NCBI RefSeq assembly: GCF_964355755.1
Contig: NC_092675.1
Span: 28,926,912-28,990,911, forward strand
Origin: Antedon mediterranea
Taxonomy: Eukaryota > Animalia > Echinodermata
Direction: 5' to 3'
DNA: 64,000 nt
Position numbers and translations under genes: made by a program. The notes below the pieces were generated by a model. The model was not told the origin of the DNA. It did no database searches and saw only the letters and a list, made by a program, of their open reading frames with translations. This document shows, in pieces, positions 3,360 to 45,446 of the stretch. How positions within the stretch are numbered: position 1 is the first letter of the stretch; each line of letters opens with the position of its first letter.

Positions 3360-5144
3360 ATGAACAGGAATCCTGGACTATATACAATGTTGTTTCAATG
3401 CTTTTCAACAAGACAACTTGGAATATTATTTATGGTTACTTGCTGGTTGCATGTTGTTTCACCTGAGCAAACACACCCACCATTTGTATTTGTGGGAAAT
3501 AAAACAATAAGCATAAGTATGCCTACTGAAGACAAAACTTATTTTGCTGACCAAGAACTTTCTTTCACTTGTAAATTTGAATGGTTTCAAACACGTATCA
3601 ACCAAATAGACATACAGCTTTCACAAAATGGTTCTTTTTTACCTAAAGATTCAGTTAAGATTGTTAAAGGTTTCTCAAATGGGGATTACAGTATACAGGA
3701 TTTTACAGTAATAATTTTAAATCTCACAAAGTTCCACACAGGATCATACAAATGTGTCTATGATAATGGTATGTACAAATCTGAGCAAGAAAAAACAATT
3801 ACAGTTTGGCCAATTCCAGTGGATCCTAAATGTACATCTTTGCAGCCATTTTATTTTGAAGGACAAGAAGTTAGCATCAAATGTGAAGCTATTGCTACAT
3901 ATCCAGACATTACATTAAAATGGAACTCTGGAAATTCCACTGCTAAAAATCCTCACAACATAAAATTCATTGCTGAAAAAGACATGAATGGGCTTAAATA
4001 TAAATGCTTAATGAATGTACCATCATGGAGATCAAGACCCTTTGTTTGTAAATTTTTAATTTTAGTAAAAAACATTGAGATTGTTGTTATAAATAATAAT
4101 GTTACATTAGGACAACCAGCAGCATTGCAATGCATCGTGGGTAACACCAATCAAGAACTCAACTATACTTGGACATTAGAATACAGTAAGTTAAAAAGAG
4201 GAATTCAACAAAATCCAAATTGTAAAAATATCAATGGTGGTAGCAGCAAAAATATGAACTGCAATGAGAAGATACTGAAGATTGAGAAAGTGACAGCTGA
4301 TATGAACAATGCTGTTATCACTTGTGAGGTACAAGGATACAATGTTATTGGAAGAAACTCTAGTATACTTACTGTATATGGACTTACTACTGTAGAACCT
4401 ACAAAAGATACAACTATGATGGAGAAAGAGAAGAACAATAGGAGTGACTTAAGTACACCAGAAAATAAAAAAAATGAAAGAGTTAAGATGTCCAATGACC
4501 CAGACACAGAATTTATTAAAACAATTGCTATAGTTTGTGGAAGTCTTTTACTTATATTTCTGATATATATAATGGTTATTTGCTTCCGTCGTTTGAAAGT
4601 AACTTCAAATCAAGATATCCAAGTTGCTACAAGTATAACCCATGACAATGACTCTTACAACACAGTGCCATTGCCCATCAGTGCACAATTGACATCAGAC
4701 AATACACAATATCATGGTGCTACTTGTCTTAATATCAATAGAGAAGAGAATCCTGAATTTCATATTTATCAAGACATCAACGTAAATTCTGAAGATGTCA
4801 CTGATGAATACCTAATTCCTCTGGCAATGGTTAAACAATTTGATAGCTCAAATTGTGAAGAAAATATGACATATATTAAACAAACATGTGAAGGAATGGT
4901 TAATAAGTCAACAAGCAATTTGGAAGGTGACAACACAACAGATGATTTGTACACTCATCATGACATAAGCACAACTTTTGATGATGTCACTGATGGATAC
5001 CTAACTCCTGTAATTTTTGCAGAGCAGGTTAAAAAAGATGAAAACTCCAAACATACTGAACATGAAGAATACCCCTACAAAGAGAGTGTAGATCTCATTA
5101 AAAATGATAAGACAGATTCTCTTTATCTTGAGATTATTGAGTAA
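3360..5144 (+). CDS. g1: 3-Ig-domain type I membrane receptor, ectodomain type A + short tail S1 (intact, 594 aa)
   Basis: Hydrophobic N-terminus. Ig Cys pairs LSFTC..GSYKC, SIKC..W..YKC and ALQC..W..VITC. TM IAIVCGSLLLIFLIYIMVICF. Tail motifs YNTV, YQDI, DEYLIP, DGYLTP and terminal SLYLEI (fits the ITIM consensus S/I/V/L-x-Y-x-x-I/V/L). Confidence 0.88.
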   Translation: MNRNPGLYTMLFQCFSTRQLGILFMVTCWLHVVSPEQTHPPFVFVGNKTISISMPTEDKTYFADQELSFTCKFEWFQTRINQIDIQLSQNGSFLPKDSVKIVKGFSNGDYSIQDFTVIILNLTKFHTGSYKCVYDNGMYKSEQEKTITVWPIPVDPKCTSLQPFYFEGQEVSIKCEAIATYPDITLKWNSGNSTAKNPHNIKFIAEKDMNGLKYKCLMNVPSWRSRPFVCKFLILVKNIEIVVINNNVTLGQPAALQCIVGNTNQELNYTWTLEYSKLKRGIQQNPNCKNINGGSSKNMNCNEKILKIEKVTADMNNAVITCEVQGYNVIGRNSSILTVYGLTTVEPTKDTTMMEKEKNNRSDLSTPENKKNERVKMSNDPDTEFIKTIAIVCGSLLLIFLIYIMVICFRRLKVTSNQDIQVATSITHDNDSYNTVPLPISAQLTSDNTQYHGATCLNINREENPEFHIYQDINVNSEDVTDEYLIPLAMVKQFDSSNCEENMTYIKQTCEGMVNKSTSNLEGDNTTDDLYTHHDISTTFDDVTDGYLTPVIFAEQVKKDENSKHTEHEEYPYKESVDLIKNDKTDSLYLEIIE

Positions 5145-5977
5145 TGTATATAATATATACACAAGTATTTAGGATAGGTAAACATTATTAGTACATTAAT
5201 TTTATACTGACCTAATCAGGTTAATTGTACTATGTTTTAATATAATACTAATCAGATTGGATATATAGTTTTTTAAATATATACTCAACTCGCCAAATTA
5301 CAAGATTTACTACTATTTTATAATTACCACCACTACTACTGGTTATACCTGTAAGAGAAAATAATATATATATATATATAAATATGTGTAGTTTAGATTT
5401 TAATTGTGCCTGCCTACATTTCTATTTCCTTCTTCCCATATTTAGTAATTGTCAAGAGTTTTTCGGTAAAACCCCCAAAAATTGTTATAATATAACATTG
5501 AAACTAAACTGTAACAATAGAAATATGTCTCTGTTAATCGTTTTGTTTTATGTTGATATTTGTAAAACAAATAAAAGTAAAAGTCAAATAAATTGTACAT
5601 ATCTGGAAACAGGCTGATATACCTAGATGTTTTTTCTTACTTTTACCTGTATTATCATATTACCTGTATATTTACTAAGCAAACATTTTGGAAAAAATGA
5701 AATATACCACAAAATATTCTAAAGGTTTTAATATTGATACACTCAAATCGTGCATGGGATATAAATCTTCAATACAAAAAGTTGTAGGACACAGCCGGGC
5801 ACATCCTTGAGTTGAAAACAAATTGAAACTATAAAAATTAATTTTTATTGCATGTATTTTTCATTGCCAATATTGCTCCATGCTTTTATTTTCCTAATTA
5901 TTTAATTAAATTGATATAGAGGGAGCTGTATATTAATATTTGATAATACAGTACAATACTGATTACACAATCCAGAA

Positions 5978-6881: not shown

Positions 6882-8420
6882 ATGTTTTTACATTTACCAA
6901 CTTTAATACTTGCAATATTATTCATTTTTGGTTCCCATATTGGCTCATCGCAAATAGACAAAACACAGTATCCATAAGTATAGAAGACAAAACATATTTT
7001 GTTTCTCAAGAACTTATTATTTCTTGTAAATTTGACTATTTTCAAACACATCTTGAGCAGCAAGATTTAATACTTACAAACAATGAATCAATTCTGACAC
7101 AGGATTCATTAAATATTGAAGAAATTTCTGGAAGCAAACAGGAATTTAAAATAACAATTTCAAATCTTAAAGAGTCTCACACAGGATCATACAAATGTGG
7201 CACCACACAGGGCACAGATATAAGTGGACAGTCTAAACAACAAATGGTCAAAGTTTGGCCAATTCCTGAGTACCCTAGGTGCACAGCATCCCCAGAATTC
7301 TATTTTGAAGGTCAAAACTTGACCTTAACGTGTGAAACCATTGCTACATATCCTAATTTTACATTAAAATGGAATAATGAACAACACCAACATGAAAATA
7401 TTAAAATCCAAAAAGTCATTGCCACAAAGGAAAACAATGGTTCAACACATACATGTATATTGGATGTACTAGCATGGAGTAGAGTGAAACTTTGTAAAAT
7501 TGAAATTTCAATAAAACAGATAAATATTGTTGGCAATACTGTTGCATTAGGACGACCTGCAATGTTGCAATGCATTGTGGATGATGTCATCTCAGGTCTC
7601 ACCTATACCTGGACATCTGAATCTAGCAGTTTAGTAGAAGAAATTGAACAAAACAAAAATTGTAACTACATCAATGGTAATAGCAGCAATAAAAATTGCC
7701 AAACACTTGGAGATAACAAGATCCTATACATTGAGAAAGTGACAGCTGATATGAACAATACGATTATCACTTGTCAGGTGCAATGGTACAATGTTATTGG
7801 AAAAAACTCAAGTATACTTACTGTAAATGAACTACCTACTGTAGAACATACAAAAGATGCAGTAACTTCTATAGAACCTAGAGAGACTAGAAGAGAACTA
7901 ACTACACAAGAAAATACAAAAATGAAGGAGAACAGTGACAATGAGACTTATAATAACAGCAACAACAATGTTACTTATATATATGTCATTGTTGCTTTTT
8001 TTGGATCTCAAGGCATCAAATCAAAGTGTTCCTCAGGTTGGCACAACTGCAGCTACTATGAGCTATGTCAATGACTCTTACAGAGCCTTGCCATTGTCCA
8101 CCAGTGCACCATCTACATCAGACAATGCACAATCTCATGGTGATATTATTTTAAATAATCTGAAGAAAGAAGAGAATGCTGAATTCCATATTTATCAGGA
8201 TATCAACACAATGTCTGATGACATTAAAGATGATTACCTAATTCCTTTGACAATAGTTAAACAATTTGATAACGGCCCTAAATGTCAAGAAAATATAATA
8301 GATATTGAACATGAGGAAGAAACTTGTCAAGGAATGGTAAAGTCAACAAACACTCTGGAAGTTGACAACAAATTAGATGAAAATGTTGATTTACATACTT
8401 ATTATAACAGCAACTTTTGA
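6882..8420 (+). pseudogene. g2: Ig receptor pseudogene, ectodomain type B + tail S2
   Basis: ATG at 6882 (MFLHLPTLI..., as in g4 and g10). A ~10-bp deletion near 6966 gives an early stop. A ~53-bp deletion near 8009 (relative to g4) removes most of the TM and shifts frame. The fragments are ORFs 7244-8074 and 7935-8420. Confidence 0.85.
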
Positions 8421-10567: not shown

Positions 10568-12631
10568 ATGAACAGGAATCCTGGACTAGATACAATGTTG
10601 TTTCAATGCTTTTCAACAAGACAACTTGGAATATTATTTATGGTTACTTGCTGTTTGCATGTTATTTCACCTGAGCAAACACACCCACCATTTGTATTTG
10701 TGGGAAATAAAACAATAAGCATAAGTATGCCTACTGAAGACAAAACTTATTTTGCTGACCAAGAACTTTCTTTCACTTGTAAATTTGAATGGTTTCAAAC
10801 ACGTATCAACCAAATAGACATACAGCTTTCACAAAATGGTTCTTTTTTACCTAAAGATTCAGTTAAGATTGTTAAAGGTTTCTCAAATGGGGATTACAGT
10901 ATACAGGATTTTACAGTAATAATTTTAAATCTCACAAAGTTCCACACAGGATCATACAAATGTGTCTATGATAATGGTATGTACAAATCTGAGCAAGAAA
11001 AAACAATTACAGTTTGGCCAATTCCAGTGGATCCTAAATGTACATCTTTGCAGCCATTTTATTTTGAAGGACAAGAAGTTAGCATCAAATGTGAAGCTAT
11101 TGCTACATATCCAGACATTACATTAAAATGGAACTCTGGAAATTCCACTGCTAAAAATCCTCATAACATAAAATTCATTGCTGAAAAAGACATGAATGGG
11201 CTTAAATATAAATGCTTAATGAATGTACCATCATGGAGATCAAGACCCTTTGTTTGTAAATTTTTAATTTTAGTAAAAAACATTGAGATTGTTGTTATAA
11301 ATAATAATGTTACATTAGGACAACCAGCAGCATTGCAATGCATCGTGGGTAACACCAATCAAGAACTCAACTATACTTGGACATTAGAATACAGTAAGTT
11401 AAAAAGAGGAATTCAACAAAATCCAAATTGTAAAAATATCAATGGTGGTAGCAGCAAAAATATGAACTGCAATGAGAAGATACTGAAGATTGAAAAAGTG
11501 ACAGCTGATATGAACAATGCTCTCATCACTTGTGAGGTACAAGGGTACAATGTTATTGGAAGAAACTCTAGTATACTTACTGTAAATGGACTTACTACTG
11601 TAGAACATACAAAAGATGCAGTAACTTCTATAGAACCTAGAGAGACTAGAAGAGAACTAACTACACAAGAAAATACAAAAAGTAAGGAGAACAGTGACAA
11701 TGAGACTTACAATGTTACCTATATATATATCACTGTTGCTATTTTTGGATCTCTTTTGTTTTTCATATTCCTAATCTATATTGTGAGAATATGCTTCCAG
11801 TGTTTCACAAAGTCTTCAAATCAAAGCAGTGATGTTGGTACAATACAAGCTATTGTAAGCTATGATAATGACTCTTACAGAACAGTACCATTGGTGGTTC
11901 GTGCAGCATCAAAATCCAAACTCCATCATACATCACAGCAATTATTAACAGACAACCAGATGAGCTCTGCTTCGAGTGTGATCTCATTACCAGATGAAAG
12001 ACAATGTCAACGCATGAAACAAACATGGATATCGACACGTCACCTAACACCAGTACATTCAACCACTACATTTGGATCTAGTGATGATGAATATAAACAC
12101 AGCATTGATGACATGTTGAATGACCCTATGTATGATGAGATAAATTCTAAAACATTGAAAAATCAGAGAGAAGATTTGAGAACAGAAGCAGACCAAGTTG
12201 AACCTACCTGGAGTGGTGCAAAGCACAGAGATGGCAACGGAGCTGATGGTGATGAACACAAGACAAACACTGAAGATCCATATCAAGAAATTAGGAACGA
12301 GTTTACAGCAAGAGACAAAAGACTCACATCAGAAGGAAATGCTTTGAATACTTATGAGAAAATATCAGAATTGGAAGCTGGTTTTAATTCTGAAGAGGTG
12401 CATGAAAATTCGTCTCAAGAAAAATGCCTTAATAAACAAATAAAAGAAGAGTTTGGAAAAACACAAACAAAATCAAACAGCAGTGAAACAGAACATATCT
12501 ACTCTCAAGTTAACAAAAAGATGAAAAACAAAGTTTTAAAAGATCAATATCTGGAGATATATGCAGAGACTGTGGACGTTGTCAGGAGCGATGCAAGTGA
12601 ATCTGAAGACGAAACAGAAACAACCTGTTAA
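10568..12631 (+). CDS. g3: 3-Ig receptor, ectodomain type A + long tail L (intact, 687 aa)
   Basis: Ectodomain is nearly identical to g1. Stalk matches g2. TM IYITVAIFGSLLFFIFLIYIV. L tail carries YDEI, YQEI, YEKI, IYSQV and YLEIYAETV. Confidence 0.9.
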   Translation: MNRNPGLDTMLFQCFSTRQLGILFMVTCCLHVISPEQTHPPFVFVGNKTISISMPTEDKTYFADQELSFTCKFEWFQTRINQIDIQLSQNGSFLPKDSVKIVKGFSNGDYSIQDFTVIILNLTKFHTGSYKCVYDNGMYKSEQEKTITVWPIPVDPKCTSLQPFYFEGQEVSIKCEAIATYPDITLKWNSGNSTAKNPHNIKFIAEKDMNGLKYKCLMNVPSWRSRPFVCKFLILVKNIEIVVINNNVTLGQPAALQCIVGNTNQELNYTWTLEYSKLKRGIQQNPNCKNINGGSSKNMNCNEKILKIEKVTADMNNALITCEVQGYNVIGRNSSILTVNGLTTVEHTKDAVTSIEPRETRRELTTQENTKSKENSDNETYNVTYIYITVAIFGSLLFFIFLIYIVRICFQCFTKSSNQSSDVGTIQAIVSYDNDSYRTVPLVVRAASKSKLHHTSQQLLTDNQMSSASSVISLPDERQCQRMKQTWISTRHLTPVHSTTTFGSSDDEYKHSIDDMLNDPMYDEINSKTLKNQREDLRTEADQVEPTWSGAKHRDGNGADGDEHKTNTEDPYQEIRNEFTARDKRLTSEGNALNTYEKISELEAGFNSEEVHENSSQEKCLNKQIKEEFGKTQTKSNSSETEHIYSQVNKKMKNKVLKDQYLEIYAETVDVVRSDASESEDETETTC

Positions 12632-13383
12632 TGGAAGACTACTACAACTACAGTATACAAGGTAATTTGCGATACACGTTTTATTTTTAATGTTATCTAT
12701 TTTACTCAACTAAAGTAATCAGAGATGTTTTTATAACTACCATGTTTTCTGAAAATCAAATTGGTACTAAGCTGCGAATTGTCAACTAATTTGTCTGCTC
12801 CCAAACAGTCACCAAAAAGTACCGATAAAGAAGACTGTTTTAGATGATGGTGACTATGAATGGATGAATGGTTCAGTGTAGGAATGCTAGTTAACCATAC
12901 TAACAGTACCATCTTGATTTTTGGATCAGCTGACAAAACTATCATTTAGTTATAATAATAATAATATTTATTCAGCATGTTATATAAAGTACAATCTTCC
13001 AGGAGCAAGCAATAGGCATATGCCTGAACATAATTAACTACTCTTGTTCCAACAAATACAAATAGAACCGCAACAAAACTTAATTTATTTGAACATTTGT
13101 ATTAGAGGGCAGTATAAAGTTTTCTCATAATATACAATAATATGAAATTACTAACTTTCCATAAATTAAATGAAAACCGAAACCAAATCAAAAACTACAA
13201 CATACCTAATATAAATGCTTCATTTACAAACTGAAATGATTGGCTAGAAATTTCTCATCATGAATAATATTTCTTTATACAGTCTTACACAACTTCATAT
13301 TTAGCTATTGTACTGTACGATGGTCTACTGTAAGCAGTGTAGAATAAATCAATCATTTGACCGGAATTCTAGGATTAAATACA

Positions 13384-16840: not shown

Positions 16841-16895
16841 GATTGATTGGCTGAGAATAAACCAATTACAATCAAGTGCTTGTAGCTATATACAG
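16841..16895 (+). promoter_or_regulatory. Putative promoter module: inverted CCAAT pair (GATTGGCT...CCAAT) plus TATA-like GCTATATAC
   Basis: The GATTGGCT box recurs ~150-380 bp upstream of the ATG of g2 (~6615), g4 (~13237), g5, g6 (~20972), g7 (~24784), g8 (~27873), g9 (~32129), g10 (~35111), g11 (~39177) and g12 (~43142). The paired CCAAT is degenerate in type B copies. Function is inferred. Confidence 0.55.
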
Positions 16896-17223: not shown

Positions 17224-18777
17224 ATGTTGTCATCAAAGTCAGTTTTAGTGAACTTGTTGATACTATTTACAACTTGCTGTTATTGCCAAGATTCCTATAG
17301 ATATGCACAACCAATGCCTGAACAAAGTGTTGACATTTTCATACCAAAAGGAACATACTTTGTTGGTAACAATTTAACTATTTCTTGTGAATATAAATAC
17401 ATTGAAGACTTCCATAAGAAACAAATTGCACTTTTACACGATAGTAAAATTATTGAAATACACTTTTTTGACTATAAAAAAACTTAAGATATTTTCACCA
17501 GAATATATGAATTGAGAAATATTTTAAACAATAACTCTGGATCATACAAGTGTGCATATAATACTAGCGACAAGTTTATTTTATTATCTGAAGAAAAATG
17601 TCTTCAAGTTTGGTCAAAACCTGAGAACCCTAAATGCAAAGTTTCTCCAGAATTCTATTTTGAGGGACAAGAAGTGACATTAATATGTGAAACCAGTGGT
17701 ACATATCCAGAATTTTCCTTAAAATGGGGACTTGATCAACCCACTTCAAAAAATCAAGTTACAAAAATCGTAATTGCGATGAAAGATATTAATGGTTCTG
17801 AATATAAATGTATCTTGAATGTACAGAATTCAGTTAAACAGTGTCAAATCATAATTAAAATACATAATGTACACATTTTTGGTAATAATGTTACATTTGG
17901 TCAACCAGCAATTTTTAAATGCATTGTGTCTGATAATACAAATAATACCATTCCAGAACTCAACTATACATGGACATCAGAATCTAAAGGTTTAAAGAGA
18001 TTAATTGAAATGGAAAAAAGAAATACAAGTTGTAAGAATATCAACGGTAACAACACAGATTGCCAAACATTTGGAGAAGACAAGATTCTAAACATTAAGA
18101 AAGTGACAACTGATATGAACAATGCTGTTATCACTTGTGAGGTACAAGGGTATAATGTTATTGGAAGAACCTCTAGTATACTTACAGTACATGGACTACC
18201 TACTGTAGAACCTACAACAGAAACAATAACTACTACAGAACCTACAAGAGATAGAGCTACGACAGAAAAAGATAAGCACACTAGAAGAGAACTAACTACA
18301 CAAGAAAATACAAAAAGTAGAGAGAACAGTGACAATGAGACTTACAATGACAGCAACAACAATTTTACTTATATATATATCATTGTTGCTATTTTTGGAT
18401 CTCTGATGTTATTGATATTTCAAATATACATTCTGGTAATTTGCTTCCATCGATTTAAGGCATCAAATCAAAGTGTTCCTCAGGTTGGCACAACTCCACC
18501 TACTATCAGCTATGTCAATGACTCTTACAGAGCAGTACCATTGTCCACCAGTTCACCATCTACATCAGACAATACACAATCTCATGGTGACATTATTTTC
18601 CATAATCTCAAGAAAGAAGAGAATGCTGAATTCCATATTTATCAGGACATCAACACAACTTCTGATGCCATCACAGATGAATACCTTATTCCTTTGACAA
18701 TTGTTAAACAACATGATCACAGTTGGAATTGTGAAGAAATTATAAATGATATTAAATACAAGGAAACAAGCCTATGA
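17224..18777 (+). pseudogene. g5: Ig receptor, ectodomain type C + tail S2, with an in-frame nonsense codon in Ig domain 1
   Basis: ORFs 17224-17487 and 17512-18777 are in the same frame, separated by TAA at 17485-17487 where paralogs have AAA. A +1 frameshift near 18765 cuts off the distal tail, whose remnant runs to SLYLEIIE* at ~19035. Confidence 0.82.
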
Positions 18778-19818
18778 AGAAATGGTTAAGGCAACAAACA
18801 ATTTGGAAGTTGACACAATTGATGACAGTGTTAATTTACACACTTATCATGACACAAGCACAACTTTTGGTGATGTCACTGATGGATACACCATAACTCC
18901 TGAAAATTTGGCAGAGCAGGTTAAAAAAGATGCAAACTCTAAACATACTGAAAGTGAAGAACACCCTGTAAAGCAATGGTAGATCCCATTAAAAAATAAT
19001 ATGACCAGTTCTCTTTATCTAGAGATTATTGAGTAATGTTTATATAACATTTACACTATTAGGATAGGCTAAAAATTATATCAAATTTTAAACTCATTTA
19101 ATCATTGTTTTTCAAAGGTATTTCCTAAACCTTCTGAAGTTTATTGTGAGTGATAATACCAATACTAAAACAAACTAACAACTATTATTTTTAAGGATTA
19201 CAGATTAAATTCTACGAATATTTTTTAGTTCAGATTTTAATCTGAGCTCCATCTTCTATTTCCTTCTTATATAATGATTATGAAAAAGTAAATTGTCAAG
19301 AATTTTAAGGTAAAAACTAGATAATTTTTCTCATCAAACAACATTGAAAACTAAACTGTAACAATAACAAACATGCCTGTTAATTGTTTTCTTTTGTGTT
19401 GATATTAATTGTGAAACAAATAAAAGTGAAAGTGAATTAAACTTTATATCTGGAAAGAGTTTCAGTAGATCAGATGTTTCCAGTATTTTGTAAGCAAACA
19501 TTTAATAAAATTATGTACAAAATATTCTAAAGGTAAAATTTATACACTTAAATTGTGAATGGAATGTAAATCTGTATACACATATACAGGACACAGCAAG
19601 ACACATTGCTGCTTTAACTAAATAAATAAATTTGGAACCAATATATTTTGAATACTATAAGTGTATTTGTAATGCATACATGACAAATTGTCAAGAACAT
19701 AATTGTATCTATGATATTGCTGTACGCTTTTGTGTTTTTAATTATTCAATTAAAACAAATTTGTTTACTTGACAGATTTAAGCATAAGATTGATTGGCTG
19801 AAAACAAACCAATGACAC

Positions 19819-19991
19819 CTAGCTAGGCTAGACCTAAAGACCGTCCAGTACTTAGTGCATTGTTTCTCTCTTTTTATCATAATTTTCAATAAAACGTACA
19901 TTTAAAACAAAGGAATGACCAGGTTTAATGTTTTTAAAGTAATATTAATCATTCTGTTTACAAAACGTTCACATTTGTAGGGAATGGGGCT
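19819..19991. mobile_element. Right-end fragment of the Kolobok-like element (second fragment at ~30755-30904)
   Basis: Matches 15970-16163 and ends GTAGGGAATGGGGCT followed by TTAA. Confidence 0.65.
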
Positions 19992-32471: not shown

Positions 32472-34502
32472 ATGTTGTCATCCAAGGCAGTTTTAGTGAA
32501 CTTTGTAATACTATTTCTAACAACTTGCTGTCCTTGCAAAGGTAACCTAGAACCAGCTGAACCAAGCGTTGAAATTTTCATCCCGGTAGGAACATACTTT
32601 GTTGGTAACAATTTAACAATTTCTTGTGAATATAAATACATTGACAACTTTCATAAGAAACACATTGCACTTTTACACAATAGTAAAATAATTGAGATAC
32701 ACTTTTTTCAATATAGAACAAATAAAGACATTTTCACCAGAAGATATGAAATGAGAAATATGTTAAAGAATAACTCTGGATCATACAAATGTGCATATAA
32801 TACTAGCAACAAGTCTATTTTTCCATCTGAAGAAAAGGTTATTCAAGTTTGGTCAAAACCAGAGAATCCCAAATGCAAAGTTTCTCCAGAATTCTATTTT
32901 GAAGGACAAGAAGTGACATTAACATGTGAAACCAGTGGTACATATCCAGAATTTACCTTAAAATGGGGATTTGATCAACCCACTTCAAAAAATAAAGTTA
33001 CAAAAAACGTAACTGCCACGAAAAATATTAATGGTTCTATACATAAATGTATCTTGAATGTACAGAATTCAGATAAAATTTGTAAAATCATAATTAAAAT
33101 AAGTAATGTTCACATTTTTGGTAATAATGTTACATTTGGTCAACCAGCAATTTTGAAATGCATTGTCTCTGATACGAATAATACCATTCCAGAACTCAAC
33201 TATATGTGGACATCAGAATCTGAAAGTTTAAAGAGAATAATGGAAATGGAAAAAAGAAATACAAGTTGTAAGAATATCAACGGTAACAACAAAGACTGCC
33301 AAACATTTGGAGAAGACAAGATCCTGAACATTGAGAATGTGACAGCTGATATGAACAATGCTGTTATCACTTGTGAGGTAGAAGGGTACAATGTTATTGG
33401 AAGAAACTCTAGTATACTTACTGTAAATGGACTACCTACTGTTGAACCTACAACAGATACAGTTATGAAAGAAAAAGATAAGAACACTAGAAGAGAACTA
33501 ACTACACAAGAAAATACAAAAATTAAGGAGAACAGTGACAAGACTTATAATGATAGAAACAACAATGTTACTACTTATATATATATCATTGTTGCTATTT
33601 TTGGATCTCTTTTGTTTTTTATATTCCTAATCTATATTGTGAGAATATGCTTCCAGTGTATAAAAAAATCTTCAAACCAAAGCAGCGGGGTTGGTACAAT
33701 ACAAGCTATTGTAAGCTATGATAATGAATCTTACAAAACAGTGCCATTGGTGGTTCGTGCAGCATCAAAATCCAAACTCCATCATACATCACAGCAATTA
33801 TTAACAGACAACCAGATAAGTTCTGCTCCGAGTATGATCTCCTTACCAGATGAACGGCAATGCCAACGCATGAAACAAACATGGGTATCAACACGTCACC
33901 TAACACCAGTACATTCAACCACTACATTTGGATCTAGTGATGATGAATATACACACAGCATTGGTGAAATGTTTAATGACCCTATGTATGATGAGATAAA
34001 TTCTAAAACATTGAAAAATCAGAGGGAGGATTTGAGAACAGAAGCTGATCAAGTTGAGCCTTCTTGGAGTGGTGCAAAGCACAGAGCTGATAGTGATGGA
34101 CACAAGACAAACACTGAAGATCCATATCAAAAAATTGGAAATGAGTTTACAGCAAGAGACAAAAGACTGACATCAGAAGAATATGTTCTGAATCCTTATG
34201 AGAAAATATCAGAATTGGAAGCTGGTTTTTATTCTGAAGAGGTGAATGAAAATATCTATTCACAACCAGATAAAAAGAAATCGTCTCAAAAAACAAACCT
34301 TAATAAACAAATAAAGGAAGAGTTTGGAAAAACACAAACAAAATCAAACAGCGGTGAAACAGAACATATTTACTCTCAAGTTAATAAAAAGATGAAAAAC
34401 AAAGTTTTAAAGGATCAATATCTGGAGATATATGCAGAGACTGTAGACGTTGTCAGGAGTGATGCAAGTGAATCTGAAGATGAAACAGAAACAACCTGTT
34501 AA
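32472..34502 (+). CDS. g9: 3-Ig receptor, ectodomain type C + tail L (intact, 676 aa)
   Basis: Same architecture; close paralog of g7. Confidence 0.9.
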   Translation: MLSSKAVLVNFVILFLTTCCPCKGNLEPAEPSVEIFIPVGTYFVGNNLTISCEYKYIDNFHKKHIALLHNSKIIEIHFFQYRTNKDIFTRRYEMRNMLKNNSGSYKCAYNTSNKSIFPSEEKVIQVWSKPENPKCKVSPEFYFEGQEVTLTCETSGTYPEFTLKWGFDQPTSKNKVTKNVTATKNINGSIHKCILNVQNSDKICKIIIKISNVHIFGNNVTFGQPAILKCIVSDTNNTIPELNYMWTSESESLKRIMEMEKRNTSCKNINGNNKDCQTFGEDKILNIENVTADMNNAVITCEVEGYNVIGRNSSILTVNGLPTVEPTTDTVMKEKDKNTRRELTTQENTKIKENSDKTYNDRNNNVTTYIYIIVAIFGSLLFFIFLIYIVRICFQCIKKSSNQSSGVGTIQAIVSYDNESYKTVPLVVRAASKSKLHHTSQQLLTDNQISSAPSMISLPDERQCQRMKQTWVSTRHLTPVHSTTTFGSSDDEYTHSIGEMFNDPMYDEINSKTLKNQREDLRTEADQVEPSWSGAKHRADSDGHKTNTEDPYQKIGNEFTARDKRLTSEEYVLNPYEKISELEAGFYSEEVNENIYSQPDKKKSSQKTNLNKQIKEEFGKTQTKSNSGETEHIYSQVNKKMKNKVLKDQYLEIYAETVDVVRSDASESEDETETTC

Positions 34503-35437
34503 TGGAGGACAGGTACCTATAAAGTTTACAACTATATACAAGGTAATTTGCAATACAATTTTATGTGATGTATCTTACTCAACTATAGTAATCAAATATG
34601 TTATTATAACTACCATGTTTTCTGAAAATCAAATTGGTACTATACTGCAAATGGTAAGCTAATTTGTCTGCTCTCAAACAGTTATCATAGAAGTACCTAT
34701 AATATTAGGCTATCTAATGGTGACTATGAATGGATGAATGGTTCAGTGTAGGAATGCTAGTTAACCATACTAACAGTACCATCTTGATTTTTGGATTAGC
34801 TGACAAAACTATAATTTAGTTATAATAATAATAATAATATTTATTCAGCATGTTATATCAAGTAAAATCTTCCAGGAGCAAGCAATAGGCATATGCCTGA
34901 ACATAATTAACTGCTCTTGTTCCAATAAATACAAATAGAACCTCAACAAAACTCAATTTAATTGAACATTTGTATTAGAGGGCAGTATAAAGTTTTCTCA
35001 TATTATACAATAATATGAAATTACTAACTTTCCATAAATTAAATGAAAACAGAAACCACATAAAAAACAACAATATACCTAATTTAAATGCTTCATTTAG
35101 AAAACTGAAATGATTGGCTAGAAATTTCCCATCAGGAATAATATTTCTTTATACAGTCTTACACAAATTTAGCTATTGTACTGTACGGTGATCTACTGTA
35201 AGCATTGCAGAATAAATCAATCATTTGGTCCACTTTTCTTTCTGTTCTTGAACTTCAAAGGAATTTTTGAAATTTGTATATTGTGTTGGTTGAAAGATTT
35301 AAAGTTTATTTGCAGATTATTTGGATCCCACCTCAGTGACAATTTTCATAAAATATATTACACAGTTATTTCAACTGGAAAAGCTGACTTAGTGATTTTT
35401 GTAATTTACACTGACAACAATTCTAGGATTAAATGCA

Positions 35438-37531
35438 ATGTTTTTACATTTAATACGAACTTTAATATTTGGAATATTATTTATTTTTGGTTCTCATATT
35501 GGTTCATTGCAAATATACAAAACAGTACCTCCAGCAAACACAGGAAGTCCAACACTAAGCATAAGTATAGAGGATAAAACATATTTTGTTTCTCAAAAAC
35601 TTATTATTTCTTGTAAATTTGACTTCTTTCAAACACATATTGAGCTGCAAGATTTAAAACTAACAAACAATGGATCAAATTTACCAAAGGATTCATTAAA
35701 TATTGAAGAAATTTATGCAAGGAAAAGAAGTTTACAGGAATTTAAAATAACAATTTCAACTCTTACAGAGTCTCACACAGGATCATATAAATGTGCCACC
35801 ACACAGGGCCAAGACGGACAGTCTAATCAAGAAATGGTCAAAGTTTGGCCAATTCCAGAGGACCCTAGGTGCACAACATCCCCAAAGTTCTATTTTGAAG
35901 GACAACACTTGACCTTAACTTGTGAAACCACTGCTATATATCCTACTTTTAAATTAAAATGGAATAATGAACAACCCAAACATGAAAATCTTCAAATCCA
36001 AAAAGTCATTGCCACAAAAGATAACAATGGTTCAACACATACATGTATATTGGATGTACTAGCATGGAGTAAAGTGACACTTTGTAAAATTGAAATTTCA
36101 ATCAAAGAGATAATTATTGTTAGCAATATTGTTGCATTAGGACGACCTGCAACGTTGCAATGCATTGTGGATGATGCCATCCCAGGTCTCAACTATACCT
36201 GGACATCTGAATCTAACAGTTTTTATCAAAATGGAAATAAATGTTATGAATACATTAATAATAGTAGCAACAACAGCGAAAACTGGCAAACATTAGGCAA
36301 TGAGAATACCCTGAACATTGAGAATGTGACAGCTGATATGAACAATACTGTTATCACTTGTGAAGTACAAGGGTACAATATTATTGGAAGAAACTCTAGT
36401 ATACTTACTGTACATGGACTACCTACAGTAGAACCTACAACAGATACAATAACTATTATTATACCTACAACAAATGCAATAACTACAGAAACTACAACAG
36501 AGAAAATTATGACTACAAAAGAAAAACATACTGGAAATGAAAATGCAAATACAGAAAAACCAAAAAGTAGTAACAATAACAATCTAATTTTTTTTGTTGT
36601 TTGTATATTTGGATCTCTCACCTTATTAATATTTCTAATCTTTGTTGTCAGAATTTGTATCCAGTGCATAAAAAAATCTTCAAACCAAAGCAGCAATGTT
36701 GGTACAATACAAGCTATTGTAAGCTATGATAACGAATCTTACAAAACTGTGCCATTGGTGGTTCGTGCACCACCCAAGTCTGTCACCAAACTCCACCATA
36801 CATCCCAGCAATTATTAACAGACAACCAGATGATCTCTGCTCCGAGTATGATCTCATTACCTGATGAAAGACAACGCCAACGAATGAAACAAACATGGAT
36901 ATCAACACGTCACCTAACACCAGTACATTCAACCACTACATTTGGATCTAGTGATGATGAATATACACACAGCATTGATGAAATGTTTAATGACCCTATG
37001 TATGATGAGATAAATTCTAAAACATTGAAAAATCAGAGGGAAGATTTGAGAACAGAAGCTGATCAAGTTGAGCCTTCTTGGAGTGGTGCAAAGCACAGAG
37101 ATGGCAACAGAGCTGATAGTGATGGACACAAGACAAAAACTGAAGATCCATATCAAAAAATAGAGAATGAATTTACATCAAGAAACAAAAGACTCGCATC
37201 AGAAGGAAATGCTTTGAATCCTTATGAAAAAATATCAGAATTGGAAGCTGGTTTTAATTCTGAGGAGGTGAATGAAAATATCTATTCACAACCAGATAAG
37301 AATAAATCATCTCAAGAGACATGCCCTGATAATAAACAAATAAAGGAAGAGTTTGGAAAAACACAAACAAAATCAAACAGCAGTGAAACAGAACATATCT
37401 ACTCTCAAGTTAATAAAAAGATGAAAAACAAAGTTTTAAAGGATCAATATCTGGAGATATACGCAGAGACTGTGGATGTTGTCAGGAGTGATGCAAGTGA
37501 GTCTGAAGATGAGGCAGAAACTACATGTTAA
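35438..37531 (+). CDS. g10: 3-Ig receptor, ectodomain type B + tail L (intact, 697 aa)
   Basis: The only intact type B copy. Long Thr-rich stalk. TM LIFFVVCIFGSLTLLIFLIFVV. Confidence 0.9.
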   Translation: MFLHLIRTLIFGILFIFGSHIGSLQIYKTVPPANTGSPTLSISIEDKTYFVSQKLIISCKFDFFQTHIELQDLKLTNNGSNLPKDSLNIEEIYARKRSLQEFKITISTLTESHTGSYKCATTQGQDGQSNQEMVKVWPIPEDPRCTTSPKFYFEGQHLTLTCETTAIYPTFKLKWNNEQPKHENLQIQKVIATKDNNGSTHTCILDVLAWSKVTLCKIEISIKEIIIVSNIVALGRPATLQCIVDDAIPGLNYTWTSESNSFYQNGNKCYEYINNSSNNSENWQTLGNENTLNIENVTADMNNTVITCEVQGYNIIGRNSSILTVHGLPTVEPTTDTITIIIPTTNAITTETTTEKIMTTKEKHTGNENANTEKPKSSNNNNLIFFVVCIFGSLTLLIFLIFVVRICIQCIKKSSNQSSNVGTIQAIVSYDNESYKTVPLVVRAPPKSVTKLHHTSQQLLTDNQMISAPSMISLPDERQRQRMKQTWISTRHLTPVHSTTTFGSSDDEYTHSIDEMFNDPMYDEINSKTLKNQREDLRTEADQVEPSWSGAKHRDGNRADSDGHKTKTEDPYQKIENEFTSRNKRLASEGNALNPYEKISELEAGFNSEEVNENIYSQPDKNKSSQETCPDNKQIKEEFGKTQTKSNSSETEHIYSQVNKKMKNKVLKDQYLEIYAETVDVVRSDASESEDEAETTC

Positions 37532-38068
37532 TAGAAGACAGAAACTTATAAAGGTGAAAACTATACAAGGTATTTTGCACAATAAATTAATATTATTTTT
37601 TATGTGATTTATTTAGCTTGGGGGTAAAAAAAAAAATAAGAACTTTTCCATGTTACCACTTTGAGGTTGATAGAGAGTTGCTATCTAATCATGCATCATA
37701 AAATAACTAGCACTTTAAATGGTCATCACATTATATTTCTATATACTTTTACTTTATAGTGTAAAACCAGAAATATAAGTTTTGTACGAAAGAAATAACT
37801 TAATATGAAATTACCTGAACTATAGAGGGTGCTATCTATAAAAATGTTATTTCAAATGAACAAATAATATTGAATGGCATATAGTAATTTACTTAATACT
37901 ATATTTTCTATTTAGCCAAGTGAAAATCTAAAGAAATTTAATTTATTATTAATATTTCAATATCATAAATACAAACACAGATAATAACAAAAACACAATC
38001 ATTTTTTATGAGGGGTCCCCATATATTTTATTTAAAGACACTAGACCTACATTTTTTCAACCTACTTT

Positions 38069-38440
38069 AAGGTCACACACTACATTTTATGTAAAAATAC
38101 TATATGGACCTATTGCGATAATTTTGTCTTTAAACGGTTAAAAATGTGAAAAATAAGTCTATTCTAATAATTTTAGCAGCCCGCTATAAATCCCAACATG
38201 AATATCAATTGATATTTTTATATTGTTGATGTGATGCACCCACTTCGATCGATCGTGTGAAAGGGTAAATAAATAAAAGAACCGTAATTTTTCAGCTAAA
38301 ATACCAGGTGTTCCCCAGTTTGTATTAACAGATTCTCCCAAAAAAGGAAAGACAATTATTTCAGCAACGCGACAAAGTCAGGCTAGACCTATAGCTAGCA
38401 TATGATGTTTGTACCACTCTTTACCAGCTAGGCCTCCCCA
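38069..38440. mobile_element. Diverged fragment related to the Kolobok-like element (duplicated at ~42034-42405)
   Basis: TATATGGACCTATTGCGATAA...GTCTTTAAACGGTTAAAAATGTGAAAAATAA and downstream sequence match 15610-15960. Confidence 0.65.
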
Positions 38441-39438
38441 AAAATGGTATTTGTCTTGTAAAATGCCATGAATTTTGACTAATTATTTACAGCTTATATA
38501 ATAATTTTTCATATCTGTGAAACTGAAAAATACAAATGTTTATTATATTTTAAAAATTATCTTTCTAGGTGAACTTATTATATCTTTATCTAAAATATGC
38601 TACTCTGGAAACATTTAAATTGTTATTGATACTACAATGTGAATATTTTGTTATAAAATATTTATATATTTGTCAATGTTACTGGATTTTTTTTATGTGA
38701 TGGATTTATTTTTTCTTTGATGGTTTATGTGTTGTTGTTATTGTTACCTTTTTTGTAAATGTACTGTATTATGAAAGTTTTGAAAGTTATAAAAAAAAAA
38801 CAGAATTATATCTCAATTATGCAACTGAACAAGAAACAAAATTGCAATAATATAATAATTGTGATTGTTTAAATAACAGAATGATTGTTCTTGAAAAGTA
38901 AGAAAATGTTTATAATTGTTGTGTGAACATTTAAAATTATGAATGATAGCACATGTATTTACTTCTTTCTGAAATTAAATAAAATATATAGCAATACAAA
39001 TATATCAACATGAACAGGCTAAGTGGTTATATTATAGGTACTACACTGCAATATTTACTTTACAACAAATTTAAGTCATTCTAAACCATAACAATTCATT
39101 TAAAATGCACTTAAAACACACACAACTACAACTAACTTATTGTATATATGGTTTGTAACAATGCATTCCTCTGAAATGATTGGCTAGAAATTTGCCAATC
39201 AAATGAGGCTTAAAAAGTCAATCAACTATACATGCCAATAATATGTAGATACTGTATATTAACTACAGTAATCAACCAAAAAATAGACCATACATCGTAT
39301 CATATCTGGGAGTACTCACAAATTGAAACACTGTACCATTTACATGTTCATTTTTATATTTGAAGACTGTATGAAAAATACTGTTTTGGATTGTTAACAG
39401 ATTCAGAACTGAGGAACAATACTAACTGCTAATATACA

Positions 39439-41496
39439 ATGTTGTCACAATTTTTTACTTTAAACTTTCAAATAATGATTATGGCTTCATGTTTGCATAC
39501 TGCAGGAACAGAAAGTTTATCAACAAATACAGAGCCTTTACAGCCACCAGGAACTCCAACAGTAAGCATCAGTATTGAAAAGAATGAATATTATTTTGTT
39601 GGCCAAGAACTTCAAGCTACATGTACATTTAAATCATTCAACATGGAAGGAAGATTAAATAAAAATAACCTTCAACTTTTACTAAATGATACAGTCTTAG
39701 TGATTGACAAATCACAGATTGTTACTATTCATGTAAGTAGCGATTACATGACACAGGTTTATCAAATAACAATTTCAAACCTCACAGAGTCTTACACAAG
39801 ATCATATAAATGTGGATATATAAAAGCTAAGGATTTAAATAAATCTTCTACACGAGACATTACAGTTTGGCCAATTCCAAAGGATCCAAAATGTACATCC
39901 TCACAACCATTCTATTTTGAAGGACAAAACGTGACTTTAACATGTGAAGCTACAGCTTCATATCCAGATCTTGAATTGAGATGGAAATTTGATCAACCCA
40001 CTTCTAAAAATATGTGCATTAAAACATTTGTTGCTCATAACACTGATGATTTGGAAAACCGTTGCCTAATGAATGTACCGTCATGGAACTCTAAAACTTT
40101 GAGTTGTGAAATTAAAATTTTATTATTAAATCCTGAAGTGAATATTGTCGATAACAAGTTTACATTAGGACAACCAGCAACATTGGAATGCGCTGTAGGT
40201 AACACAACTAATATTGTCCCAGAACTCAACTATACTTGGATATCAGAATCTGAAAGTTTAATAAAGGAAATTGAACGAAATTCAAATCCAGATATCAATG
40301 GCAGTAGCAACAACAGCTCAAACTGCCAAAAATTTGGAGATGACATGATCCTAAACATTGAGAATGTGACAGCTGATATGAACAATGCTGTTATCACTTG
40401 TGAGGTACAAGGGTACAATGTTATTCGAAGAAACTCTAGTATACTTAGAGTAAAACGACTAACTACTGTAGAATCTACAACAGATGCAATAGAACCTACA
40501 ACAGATACAATTATGAGTGATGAAACAGAAAAAAGTAACAATAACAATTTAATTTATTTTGTTGTTAGTATATTCGGATCTTTTACATCATTTATATTTT
40601 TAATCTTTGTTGTGAGAATCTGCTTCCAGTGCATAAAAAAATCTTCAAACCAAAGCAGCAATGTTGGTACAATACAAGCTATTGTAAGCTATGATAACGA
40701 ATCTTACAAAACTGTGCCATTGGTGGTTCGTGCACCACCCAAGTCTGTCACCAAACTCCACCATACATCCCAGCAATTATTAACAGACAACCAGATGATC
40801 TCTGCTCCGAGTATGATCTCATTACCTGATGAAAGACAACGCCAACGAATGAAACAAACATGGATATCAACACGTCACCTAACACCAGTACATTCAACCA
40901 CTACATTTGGATCTAGTGATGATGAATATACACACAGCATTGATGAAATGTTTAATGACCCTATGTATGATGAGATAAATTCTAAAACATTGAAAAATCA
41001 GAGGGAAGATTTGAGAACAGAAGCTGATCAAGTTGAGCCTTCTTGGAGTGGTGCAAAGCACAGAGATGGCAACAGAGCTGATAGTGATGGACACAAGACA
41101 AAAACTGAAGATCCATATCAAAAAATAGAGAATGAATTTACATCAAGAAACAAAAGACTCGCATCAGAAGGAAATGCTTTGAATCCTTATGAAAAAATAT
41201 CAGAATTGGAAGCTGGTTTTAATTCTGAGGAGGTGAATGAAAATATCTATTCACAACCAGATAAGAATAAATCATCTCAAGAGACATGCCCTGATAATAA
41301 ACAAATAAAGGAAGAGTTTGGAAAAACACAAACAAAATCAAACAGCAGTGAAACAGAACATATCTACTCTCAAGTTAATAAAAAGATGAAAAACAAAGTT
41401 TTAAAGGATCAATATCTGGAGATATACGCAGAGACTGTGGATGTTGTCAGGAGTGATGCAAGTGAGTCTGAAGATGAGGCAGAAACTACATGTTAA
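39439..41496 (+). CDS. g11: 3-Ig receptor, chimera of the g12 ectodomain/TM (type D) and the g10 tail (L) (685 aa)
   Basis: The protein matches g12 up to the juxtamembrane RICFQC and matches g10 from there to the stop. Confidence 0.87.
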   Translation: MLSQFFTLNFQIMIMASCLHTAGTESLSTNTEPLQPPGTPTVSISIEKNEYYFVGQELQATCTFKSFNMEGRLNKNNLQLLLNDTVLVIDKSQIVTIHVSSDYMTQVYQITISNLTESYTRSYKCGYIKAKDLNKSSTRDITVWPIPKDPKCTSSQPFYFEGQNVTLTCEATASYPDLELRWKFDQPTSKNMCIKTFVAHNTDDLENRCLMNVPSWNSKTLSCEIKILLLNPEVNIVDNKFTLGQPATLECAVGNTTNIVPELNYTWISESESLIKEIERNSNPDINGSSNNSSNCQKFGDDMILNIENVTADMNNAVITCEVQGYNVIRRNSSILRVKRLTTVESTTDAIEPTTDTIMSDETEKSNNNNLIYFVVSIFGSFTSFIFLIFVVRICFQCIKKSSNQSSNVGTIQAIVSYDNESYKTVPLVVRAPPKSVTKLHHTSQQLLTDNQMISAPSMISLPDERQRQRMKQTWISTRHLTPVHSTTTFGSSDDEYTHSIDEMFNDPMYDEINSKTLKNQREDLRTEADQVEPSWSGAKHRDGNRADSDGHKTKTEDPYQKIENEFTSRNKRLASEGNALNPYEKISELEAGFNSEEVNENIYSQPDKNKSSQETCPDNKQIKEEFGKTQTKSNSSETEHIYSQVNKKMKNKVLKDQYLEIYAETVDVVRSDASESEDEAETTC

Positions 41497-43403: not shown

Positions 43404-45446
43404 ATGTTGTCACAATTTTTTACTTTAAACTTTCAAATAATGATTATGGCTTCATGTTTGCATACTGCAGGAACAGAAAGTTTATCAACAAATACAGAGC
43501 CTTTACAGCCACCAGGAACTCCAACAGTAAGCATCAGTATTGAAAAGAATGAATATTATTTTGTTGGCCAAGAACTTCAAGCTACATGTACATTTAAATC
43601 ATTCAACATGGAAGGAAGATTAAATAAAAATAACCTTCAACTTTTACTAAATGATACAGTCTTAGTGATTGACAAATCACAGATTGTTACTATTCATGTA
43701 AGTAGCGATTACATGACACAGGTTTATCAAATAACAATTTCAAACCTCACAGAGTCTTACACAAGATCATATAAATGTGGATATATAAAAGCTAAGGATT
43801 TAAATAAATCTTCTACACGAGACATTACAGTTTGGCCAATTCCAAAGGATCCAAAATGTACATCCTCACAACCATTCTATTTTGAAGGACAAAACGTGAC
43901 TTTAACATGTGAAGCTACAGCTTCATATCCAGATCTTGAATTGAGATGGAAATTTGATCAACCCACTTCTAAAAATATGTGCATTAAAACATTTGTTGCT
44001 CATAACACTGATGATTTGGAAAACCGTTGCCTAATGAATGTACCGTCATGGAACTCTAAAACTTTGAGTTGTGAAATTAAAATTTTATTATTAAATCCTG
44101 AAGTGAATATTGTCGATAACAAGTTTACATTAGGACAACCAGCAACATTGGAATGCGCTGTAGGTAACACAACTAATATTGTCCCAGAACTCAACTATAC
44201 TTGGATATCAGAATCTGAAAGTTTAATAAAGGAAATTGAACGAAATTCAAATCCAGATATCAATGGCAGTAGCAACAACAGCTCAAACTGCCAAAAATTT
44301 GGAGATGACATGATCCTAAACATTGAGAATGTGACAGCTGATATGAACAATGCTGTTATCACTTGTGAGGTACAAGGGTACAATGTTATTCGAAGAAACT
44401 CTAGTATACTTAGAGTAAAACGACTAACTACTGTAGAATCTACAACAGATGCAATAGAACCTACAACAGATACAATTATGAGTGATGAAACAGAAAAAAG
44501 TAACAATAACAATTTAATTTATTTTGTTGTTAGTATATTCGGATCTTTTACATCATTTATATTTTTAATCTTTGTTGTGAGAATCTGCTTCCAGTGTATA
44601 AAAAAATCTTCAAACCAAAGCAGCGATGTTGGTACAATACAAGCTATTGTAAGCTATGATAACGAATCTTACAGAACAGTACCATTGGTGGTTCGTGCAC
44701 CATCAAAATCCAAACTCCATCATACATCACAGCAATTATTAACAGACAACCAGATAAGTTCTGCTCCGAGTATGATCTCCTTACCAGATGAAAGACAACG
44801 TCAACGCATGAAACAAACATGGATTTCAACACGTCGCCTAACACCAGTACATTCAACCACTACATTTGGATCTAGTGATGACGAATATACACACAGCATT
44901 GGTGAAATGTTTAATGACCCTATGTATGATGAGATAAATTCTAAAACATTGAAAAATCAGAGAGAAGATTTCAGAACAGAAGCAGACCAAGTTGAGCCTT
45001 CTTGGAGTGGTTCAAAGCACAGAGATGGCAACGGAGATGATGGTAATGGACACAAGACAAACACTGAAGATCCATATAAAGAAATTGAGAATGAATTTAC
45101 AACAAGAAACAAAAGACTCAGATCAGAAGAAAATGTTCTGAATCCTTATGAGAAAATATCAGAATTGGAAGCTGGTTTTAATACTGAAGAGGTGAATGAA
45201 AGTATCTATACACAACCAGATAAAAAGAAATTGTCTCAAGAAACAAACCTTAATAAACAAATAAAGGAAGAGTTTGGAAAAACACAAACAAAATCAAACA
45301 GCAGTGAAACAGAACATATCTACTCTCAAGTCAACAAAAAGATGAAAAACAAAGTTTTAAAGGATCAATATCTGGAGATATATGCAGTGACTGTGGACGT
45401 TGTCAGGAGTGATGCAAGTGAATCTGAAGATGAGACAAACTGCTAA
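43404..45446 (+). CDS. g12: 3-Ig receptor, ectodomain type D + tail L (intact, 680 aa); last gene of the array
   Basis: Same architecture. Its 3' flank is unique. Confidence 0.9.
   Translation: MLSQFFTLNFQIMIMASCLHTAGTESLSTNTEPLQPPGTPTVSISIEKNEYYFVGQELQATCTFKSFNMEGRLNKNNLQLLLNDTVLVIDKSQIVTIHVSSDYMTQVYQITISNLTESYTRSYKCGYIKAKDLNKSSTRDITVWPIPKDPKCTSSQPFYFEGQNVTLTCEATASYPDLELRWKFDQPTSKNMCIKTFVAHNTDDLENRCLMNVPSWNSKTLSCEIKILLLNPEVNIVDNKFTLGQPATLECAVGNTTNIVPELNYTWISESESLIKEIERNSNPDINGSSNNSSNCQKFGDDMILNIENVTADMNNAVITCEVQGYNVIRRNSSILRVKRLTTVESTTDAIEPTTDTIMSDETEKSNNNNLIYFVVSIFGSFTSFIFLIFVVRICFQCIKKSSNQSSDVGTIQAIVSYDNESYRTVPLVVRAPSKSKLHHTSQQLLTDNQISSAPSMISLPDERQRQRMKQTWISTRRLTPVHSTTTFGSSDDEYTHSIGEMFNDPMYDEINSKTLKNQREDFRTEADQVEPSWSGSKHRDGNGDDGNGHKTNTEDPYKEIENEFTTRNKRLRSEENVLNPYEKISELEAGFNTEEVNESIYTQPDKKKLSQETNLNKQIKEEFGKTQTKSNSSETEHIYSQVNKKMKNKVLKDQYLEIYAVTVDVVRSDASESEDETNC

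Follow-up and report, generated by a model that had tools for sequence, protein, structure and literature searches.

Twelve related genes lie on the plus strand at positions 3360-45446 of the window, by which we mean the whole stretch analysed (64,000 nucleotides of contig NC_092675.1 of the crinoid Antedon mediterranea), and form a cluster of 42 kb. They were delimited by six-frame translation and tblastn, and no further copies of the family were found by these searches elsewhere in the 64-kb window. Each gene is laid out as a hydrophobic leader or signal peptide, three immunoglobulin (Ig)-like domains (D1 to D3), a Thr/Asn-rich stalk, one transmembrane (TM) segment and a tyrosine-rich cytoplasmic tail, encoded from leader to tail as one uninterrupted open reading frame (ORF) in DNA of about 30% guanine plus cytosine (GC). 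The intact ORFs are not due to chance, since 100 shuffles of the region yielded no ORF longer than 152 codons. Pfam Ig models were matched by all nine ORFs scanned, the third domain being Ig_3. An AG stands shortly 5' of each ATG, where an intron in the 5' untranslated region is not distinguishable from a nearby promoter. Eight genes are intact (g1, g3, g6, g7, g9, g10, g11 and g12) and four are damaged (g2, g4, g5 and g8). With the ectodomain types named A to D and the tails S1, S2 and L, the genes are as follows.

3360..5144, plus strand: g1, ectodomain A with tail S1, intact, 594 amino acids (aa)
6882..8420, plus strand: g2, B with S2; frameshifting deletion near 6965 and 53-nt TM deletion at 8008
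10568..12631, plus strand: g3, A with L, intact, 687 aa
13384..14974, plus strand: g4, B with S2; frameshifts from a 16-nt deletion at 13862 and a 1-nt lesion at 14366
17224..18777, plus strand: g5, C with S2; D1 interrupted by a stop at about 17485, remnant of the long S tail out of frame to 19036
21342..22919, plus strand: g6, C with S1, intact, 525 aa; the tail stops short of the end that in g1 bears an immunoreceptor tyrosine-based inhibition motif (ITIM)
25111..27117, plus strand: g7, C with L, intact, 668 aa
28139..29524, plus strand: g8, D with S2; premature stop at 29522-29524 after 461 aa, tail remnant to about 29975
32472..34502, plus strand: g9, C with L, intact, 676 aa
35438..37531, plus strand: g10, B with L, intact, 697 aa
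39439..41496, plus strand: g11, D with L, intact, 685 aa
43404..45446, plus strand: g12, D with L, intact, 680 aa

A preliminary description of this DNA had listed the same 12 genes and had called g2 and g4 disabled, g5 interrupted by a nonsense codon and g8 truncated. DNA alignment and module identities bear out all of its ectodomain and tail labels, and the lesions could be located in each of the four damaged genes; the g8 product up to the stop keeps the ectodomain, the TM segment and a short tail. Its statement that every ectodomain type occurs with both a short and a long tail holds among intact genes for A and C, but B and D are joined to a short tail only in the damaged g2, g4 and g8.

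The modules were compared in a DNA alignment of all 12 genes. In the leader, in D1 and D2 and in the opening part of D3 (D3a) the genes sort into four ectodomain groups, whose types are 48-75% alike in DNA; for D1, identity is 86-100% within a type and 48-66% between types. The stalk and TM segment group differently, g1 going with g6, g2 with g4, g5 and g8, and the L genes together. For example, g1 and g3 are 100% alike over D1-D3a and 68% alike in the TM segment, whereas g5 and g8 are 49% alike in D1 and 96% in stalk and TM segment, and g1 and g6 are 51% alike in D1 and 94% in the TM segment. The ectodomains of g6 and g7 are near-identical (92-99%), and the tails of g1/g3 and of g6/g7 are non-alignable past the juxtamembrane part. 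The g3 gene is a three-part mosaic with the ectodomain of g1 (99%), the stalk of g2 (100%) and the TM region of g7 (94%), followed by a g7-like tail. The g11 gene matches g12 to the end of the TM segment and g10 thereafter, its ectodomain and TM segment being identical to those of g12 and its tail to that of g10.

As the preliminary description had proposed, trees were built for the separate modules, and they are incongruent. The main groups have 100% support in both the ectodomain tree and the stalk-TM tree, and each alignment rejects the other tree in approximately unbiased (AU) tests: on the ectodomain data, the TM and stalk-TM trees are rejected (p 2.5e-6 and 3.3e-5), and on the stalk-TM data, the ectodomain tree is (p 4.0e-8; 0.039 for the short TM segment alone). 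We are highly confident that recombination within coding sequence has re-paired the ectodomains and tails of this cluster.

At the end of D3, a box of 125 bp is nearly uniform throughout the cluster.

4266..4390, plus strand: homogenised 125-bp box ending Ig domain 3, g1 copy
7715, 11474, 14193, 18079, 22194 and 25954, plus strand: positions of the box in g2 to g7
29018, 33315, 36302, 40342 and 44307, plus strand: positions of the box in g8 to g12

Over these last 125 bp of D3 all 12 genes are 85-100% identical in DNA, synonymous sites included. Synonymous divergence between types is 0.04-0.16 in the box against 0.39-0.73 in D1-D3a, in 6/6 pairs of types. In codon models the ratio of nonsynonymous to synonymous rates (omega) is 0.69 in the box, 0.56 in D2 and 0.70 in D3a, while the tree length is 0.75 in the box and 3.6-5.2 in its neighbours, about fivefold shorter. 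An omega like that of its neighbours on a far shorter tree argues that the box was made uniform by DNA exchange or homogenisation; protein constraint as the cause is rejected on the low synonymous divergence together with the omega of 0.69. Nor is a hairpin in the box supported, as four copies gave z scores of -0.3, -1.0, -1.1 and -2.3, no better than shuffles in three of the four.

The exchanges themselves could be placed. In a copying model, 10 of the 12 genes make the last switch away from their own ectodomain type just ahead of the box, within it or at its end, and g11 and g12 make it where the TM segment ends; short switches of low identity within the ectodomains of g2, g4, g8 and g10 were treated as noise. 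For 28 of 53 between-type pairs the longest identical tract exceeded that of all 300 permutations, in a test that ignores rate variation along the gene. All 28 tracts begin in the stalk (15), the TM region (10) or the box (3), and none further 5'. The donor switches thus lie between the D3 box and the juxtamembrane segment.

The sequence between the genes has moved along with them. The 5' flanks track the ectodomain type and the 3' flanks mostly the tail type, and whole spacers recur for the same upstream tail and downstream ectodomain: L to B twice, S2 to C three times and L to D three times.

12632..13383, no strand assigned: spacer L to B, colinear with the spacer at 34503-35437, 89% over 717 bp
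19037..21341, no strand assigned: spacer S2 to C, 89% covered by the spacer at 29991-32471, 70-88% identity
27118..28138, no strand assigned: spacer L to D, 58% covered by the spacers at 37532-39438 and 41497-43403
36660..40631, plus strand: perfect 3,972-bp tandem duplication unit, second copy at 40625-44596 with zero mismatches

In the comparisons of g3-g4 with g9-g10, g5-g6 with g8-g9 and g7-g8 with g10-g11, the tail, the spacer and the next ectodomain are homologous, while the outer ectodomain and the outer tail differ. Spacers therefore travel as cassettes of tail, spacer and next ectodomain, copies of which are 79-89% alike. The 3,972-bp duplication is the youngest case; its unit runs from the g10 juxtamembrane segment and tail through the spacer, the D ectodomain and the TM segment to the g11 juxtamembrane segment. 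Because g11 lies inside a 100% identical duplication, it provides no independent ectodomain or tail. Such out-of-register cassettes are the pattern expected from unequal crossing-over within coding sequence. Together with the incongruent trees and the homogenised crossover zone, the cassette-like spacers sustain the earlier proposal that recognition and signalling modules recombine inside single coding ORFs. A high-copy interspersed repeat, with very high contig depth and self-matches, is present in spacers at about 30700-30900, 38030-38440, 41990-42400 and 15530-15960.

The chimeras, or at least g11, could also be assembly artefacts that join two haplotypes across repeats. A duplication with zero mismatches would fit this, as would the fact that no matched contig spans a whole gene. 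However, the other mosaics are diverged, unlike misjoins: the cassettes differ as given above, and g1 and g3 differ in flank and tail. In run X1 the depth of exactly matching contigs is 67-72 inside the duplicated unit (4/4 listed) and 31-40 outside it (3/3), figures which are weak and only suggestive for g11 since the depth of a contig does not equal copy number and X1 is perhaps the source sample; one X1 contig ends exactly at 40631. We consider an artefact highly improbable.

The preliminary description had counted three signalling tails. At 76-83% DNA identity the distal S1 and S2 tails are homologous; three unrelated tails are ruled out and two families, S and L, are left. What these two have in common is limited to the juxtamembrane part and a weak match at a terminal YLEI. 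It had also described the ectodomains as strongly divergent, as we find, and the tails of one type as near-identical, which applies to L (92-100% identity) but not to S2 (82-90%) or to the two S1 tails (80%). Acidic YxxI/V and ExIY motifs abound in the tails, and the L tails carry 9-12 tyrosines, several of them as acidic YxxI/V. Motifs were scanned in seven intact tails, g11 being omitted as identical to g10 and g8 as truncated. A loose YxxV-x12-YxxI arrangement, resembling an ITAM (the tyrosine-based activation motif of immunoreceptors), is found in 5/5 L tails scanned. Every S tail except that of g1 is without the ITIM-bearing end, of which out-of-frame remnants remain, and g5 and g8 have distal-tail frameshifts in common (18758/29700 and 18996/29941). 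The omega of the L tail is 0.30, and a model with omega=1 is worse by 27 log-likelihood (lnL) units; this purifying selection argues that the L tail is translated and used. Omega in the ectodomains is higher, 0.56-0.78.

These data bear on the idea that the pairings arose neutrally from the instability of the tandem array, any shared stretch seeding unequal crossing-over, the tails being near-equivalent and the combinations unselected. S1 and S2 are indeed one family and L shares its juxtamembrane segment and, weakly, the terminal YLEI with S; moreover, pairings within genes look random (p 0.92), no omega exceeds 1, and 4/4 S2 genes are damaged, by different lesions, against 0/8 others (Fisher p 0.002, the copies being related). 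Neutral churn is harder to reconcile with D1 types that are kept apart while the adjacent box is homogenised, with the retention of intact A and C ectodomains on both tail families, and with purifying selection on the L tail, and it seems to us an improbable explanation.

Relatives of the cluster were sought by several routes. Word-based searches, limited to proteins of near length, gave 0/7,991 candidates with g10 as query and 0/5,728 with the ectodomain alignment. An exhaustive profile search returned 192 matches at E<=0.001, of which not one reached 1e-30; the ten high-ranking matches that were looked up, one of them unnamed, are proteins with several Ig domains from fish, tetrapods and a hemichordate. 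In a separate look-up of ten matches, five, of the length and layout of the cluster genes, are from Antedon, Anneissia and Patiria, three are from vertebrates and two are unnamed. Tail profiles had no credible match among 150 profile-search hits. The AlphaFold model had a mean predicted local distance difference test (pLDDT) score of 42, confident for D1 only, and of 33 without an alignment, and Foldseek gave generic Ig matches only. The family had not been recognised in the preliminary description, and profile, AlphaFold and Foldseek checks likewise gave no close homologue.

The echinoderm three-Ig relatives are XP_071964554.1 (Antedon), XP_033120436.1 and XP_033118883.1 (Anneissia) and XP_038059559.1 (Patiria), automatically named CADM2-like, KIRREL-like, unc-89-like or uncharacterised. 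They have the length and layout of the cluster genes, with a TM segment and tyrosine-bearing tails, and eight aligned cysteines including a four-cysteine D2; they are 16-25% identical to the cluster and show no detectable tail homology to it. HHalign scored cluster against relatives at 99.5% (E 3e-22, 265 columns), a score that is partly circular because the relatives were chosen with the cluster's own profile. The YxC..P..PxC linker, another feature in common with the cluster, is present in 20 of 150 profile hits of 350-800 aa. The cluster is thus one rapidly evolving branch within a broader, uncharacterised group of echinoderm three-Ig proteins with tyrosine tails. Among the profile hits there is also a group with two Ig domains, a TM segment and a short tyrosine tail (P0251, P0253, P0257, P0262 and P0265), which shares the D1-D2 linker and has a pair of conserved cysteines ahead of the TM segment. 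Under a second organism label (runs X6 and X7 over 27500-46500), contigs match the D-type D1 and the 5' sequence of type B at 95-99% and D1-D2 of g10 at about 89%. At least types B and D are therefore shared with a close relative.

The relatives raise another explanation, in which the shuffling is real and serves, in place of immunity, a cell-adhesion or cell-identity code, with nectin-, CADM- or KIRREL-like binding of the homophilic or heterophilic kind, for nerve wiring, tissue boundaries, regeneration or gamete recognition. In Antedon and Anneissia the colinear relatives carry the automatic names cell adhesion molecule 2-like and kin of IRRE-like, a profile of the relatives matches DSCAM, SYG-2, CADM4, nectins and IgLONs in the PDB, and look-alikes in the Atlas include CADM1, MUC18 and fasciclin-3. 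The names are automatic, however, and identity is low, as given above. Adhesion genes used in wiring are usually conserved and multi-exon, but 4/12 copies here are damaged, copy number turns over, and the ectodomains have an omega of 0.56-0.78 against 0.30 for the L tail. We regard such a code as unlikely, if worth keeping in view.

We propose that the 12 crinoid genes encode three-Ig TM receptors re-paired by recombination, which probably act in immunity or in self/non-self recognition and are predicted to signal through phosphotyrosine. Clustering, turnover, pseudogenes, ectodomains that evolve faster than the L tail, and re-pairing make up the profile of immune and allorecognition families, and on this sequence profile an immune or self-recognition role is the one that we favour, with some reserve. 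The adhesion code and neutral churn of the array are the main rivals to it. The four ectodomain lineages are kept distinct from the signal peptide to the middle of D3, the shared D3 box is homogenised, and crossovers between the box and the juxtamembrane segment would have re-paired ectodomains with tails. Tyrosine motifs of this kind serve in general as kinase and SH2 sites. Less securely, kinases would phosphorylate the YxxI/V motifs of the tails and SH2 proteins would read them, S and L tails may give different outputs, and the fast-evolving D1 may bind variable microbial or self ligands.

Several points weigh against this proposal, in addition to the neglect of rate variation in the tract test. 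The locus was analysed in one haplotype only. Repeated tail-to-ectodomain neighbours are not significant by permutation (p 0.077, and 0.154 without g11), so the case for cassettes rests on the alignments. Among the seven intact tails scanned, none has a canonical ITAM (YxxI/L-x6-12-YxxI/L) and one, that of g1, has a canonical ITIM (SLYLEI); there is also no charged residue in the middle of the TM segment, and opposite signalling by the tails is therefore not established. Positive selection was not detected: the D1 omega, a measurement suggested in the preliminary description, is 0.78, which is not above 1 and not separable from it, and pairwise omega within types is 0.24-1.11. All nine ORFs searched are absent from a collection of 15 billion proteins, though the adjacent UROD gene is annotated. 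Finally, the nearest relatives bear the automatic adhesion-molecule names given above.

A bolder form of the immune proposal is an echinoderm natural killer (NK)-receptor-like or allorecognition complex, in which the layout of the genes would itself generate combinations and whose cassettes, joined at the coding box, would be re-ordered between haplotypes and possibly in somatic coelomocyte lineages too. We think this rather unlikely; if it were true, each animal would have its own pairs of specificity and signal, with opposing S and L outputs. The re-pairing model predicts haplotype variation in the 42-kb cluster. If the genes are immune receptors, the paired-receptor design of vertebrates, tunicates and a cnidarian would have arisen again in crinoids, by a simple and mappable mechanism of crossovers within one coding exon.

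KIR, LILR and SIRP are counted among the vertebrate paired receptors, and studies of Siglec-11/16 and Xenopus CEACAM reportedly belong with them. In KLRC, Ly49 and PIR, according to the accessible text of PMC3210942, near-identical ligand-binding regions are homogenised and, through conversion or crossover, joined to different signalling regions. The crinoid pairs g1/g3 and g6/g7 are alike in having near-identical ectodomains on different TM segments and tails. The vertebrate pairs homogenise their ectodomains, whereas the crinoid cluster keeps four lineages apart and homogenises a short internal box, and its genes are without the canonical ITAM or charged TM residue of activating vertebrate partners. 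No sequence orthology to KIR, LILR, SIRP, Siglec or CEACAM was detected, the matches being piecemeal and generic to Ig domains.

In Botryllus schlosseri, intergenic recombination shuffles the ectodomains of FF genes against their intracellular regions, YxxI/L/V core motifs occur in FcoR tails, and FF/FcoR genes undergo birth and death, as the available sections of PMC12582321 describe. These too are Ig receptors of an invertebrate deuterostome, clustered, with disagreeing ectodomain and intracellular trees. The same sections give FF/FcoR a Sushi domain, many exons, alternative splicing, an arrangement in gene pairs and functional data; the crinoid genes, in contrast, have three Ig domains, a single coding ORF and a crossover zone mapped within coding sequence, and no Sushi match in Pfam among the 9/9 ORFs scanned. 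The shuffling principle, which the preliminary description took to be new, had thus been published for Botryllus, in the text available to us, and for vertebrate paired receptors, but the crinoid family itself is undescribed in the protein collections and open-access literature searched, subscription papers being outside that scope. Searches of the open-access literature found no shuffled cluster of Ig receptors described from echinoderms, and crinoid immunity is barely covered in the literature found.

The Alr genes of Hydractinia have each domain in its own exon and tails with canonical ITAMs/ITIMs (PMC9546547, available text), and alr1E shares TM segment and tail with alr1A, its ectodomain being different (bioRxiv 10.1101/2022.03.25.485889, available text). 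As far as those texts go, Alr proteins resemble ours in being Ig-like, single-pass and encoded in a cluster of an invertebrate, with pseudogenes and with tyrosine motifs, and differ in their Fn3-like extracellular spacer and in an allorecognition role proven for Alr1 and Alr2. The crinoid genes are uninterrupted ORFs, in which a Thr-rich stalk comes after a third domain of the Ig_3 kind.

Sea urchin immune-gene surveys of 2006 are said to mention V-type Ig genes. The SpTransformer (Sp185/333) genes encode two-exon effectors built as a mosaic of elements, with GA/GAT repeats flanking the genes (PMC8634487 and PMC13428168, in the portions available). Those portions describe another clustered echinoderm immune family of short genes, which diversified by segmental duplication and for which conversion and unequal crossing-over have been proposed. 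SpTransformer proteins are not Ig receptors, unlike the crinoid genes with their TM segments and tails, and no GA/GAT arrays were found between the genes of the crinoid cluster. A 2026 review, in its accessible text, ascribes echinoderm immune diversity to SpTransformer effectors and to enlarged families of TLRs, NLRs and scavenger receptors (PMC13428168), and no echinoderm Ig receptor cluster was found, with the terms used, in the accessible text of PMC11999971 or PMC13428168. The crinoid cluster resembles the known systems in its diversification and is a member of none; its distinct features are the single coding ORFs, the internal homogenised box and the out-of-register cassettes.

To the right, the cluster is bounded by ordinary genes, a carbohydrate kinase-like gene and UROD, which stand head to head.

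46550-49990, minus strand: multi-exon gene that we take, by eye, to be an FGGY-like carbohydrate kinase
50800-56531, plus strand: UROD, last exon 100% identical to UROD of Antedon mediterranea, next Anneissia japonica at 74%
59800-63350, minus strand: exons that by eye presumably belong to exosome subunit RRP40/EXOSC3

The last of these holds a GC-rich intron insert at 62190-63160, whose ORF at 62552-63160 we assume to be tyrosine-recombinase-like, as in DIRS-type retroelements. At the other end of the window, a direct repeat of about 320 bp is present in two copies, 92% alike, at 322-964.

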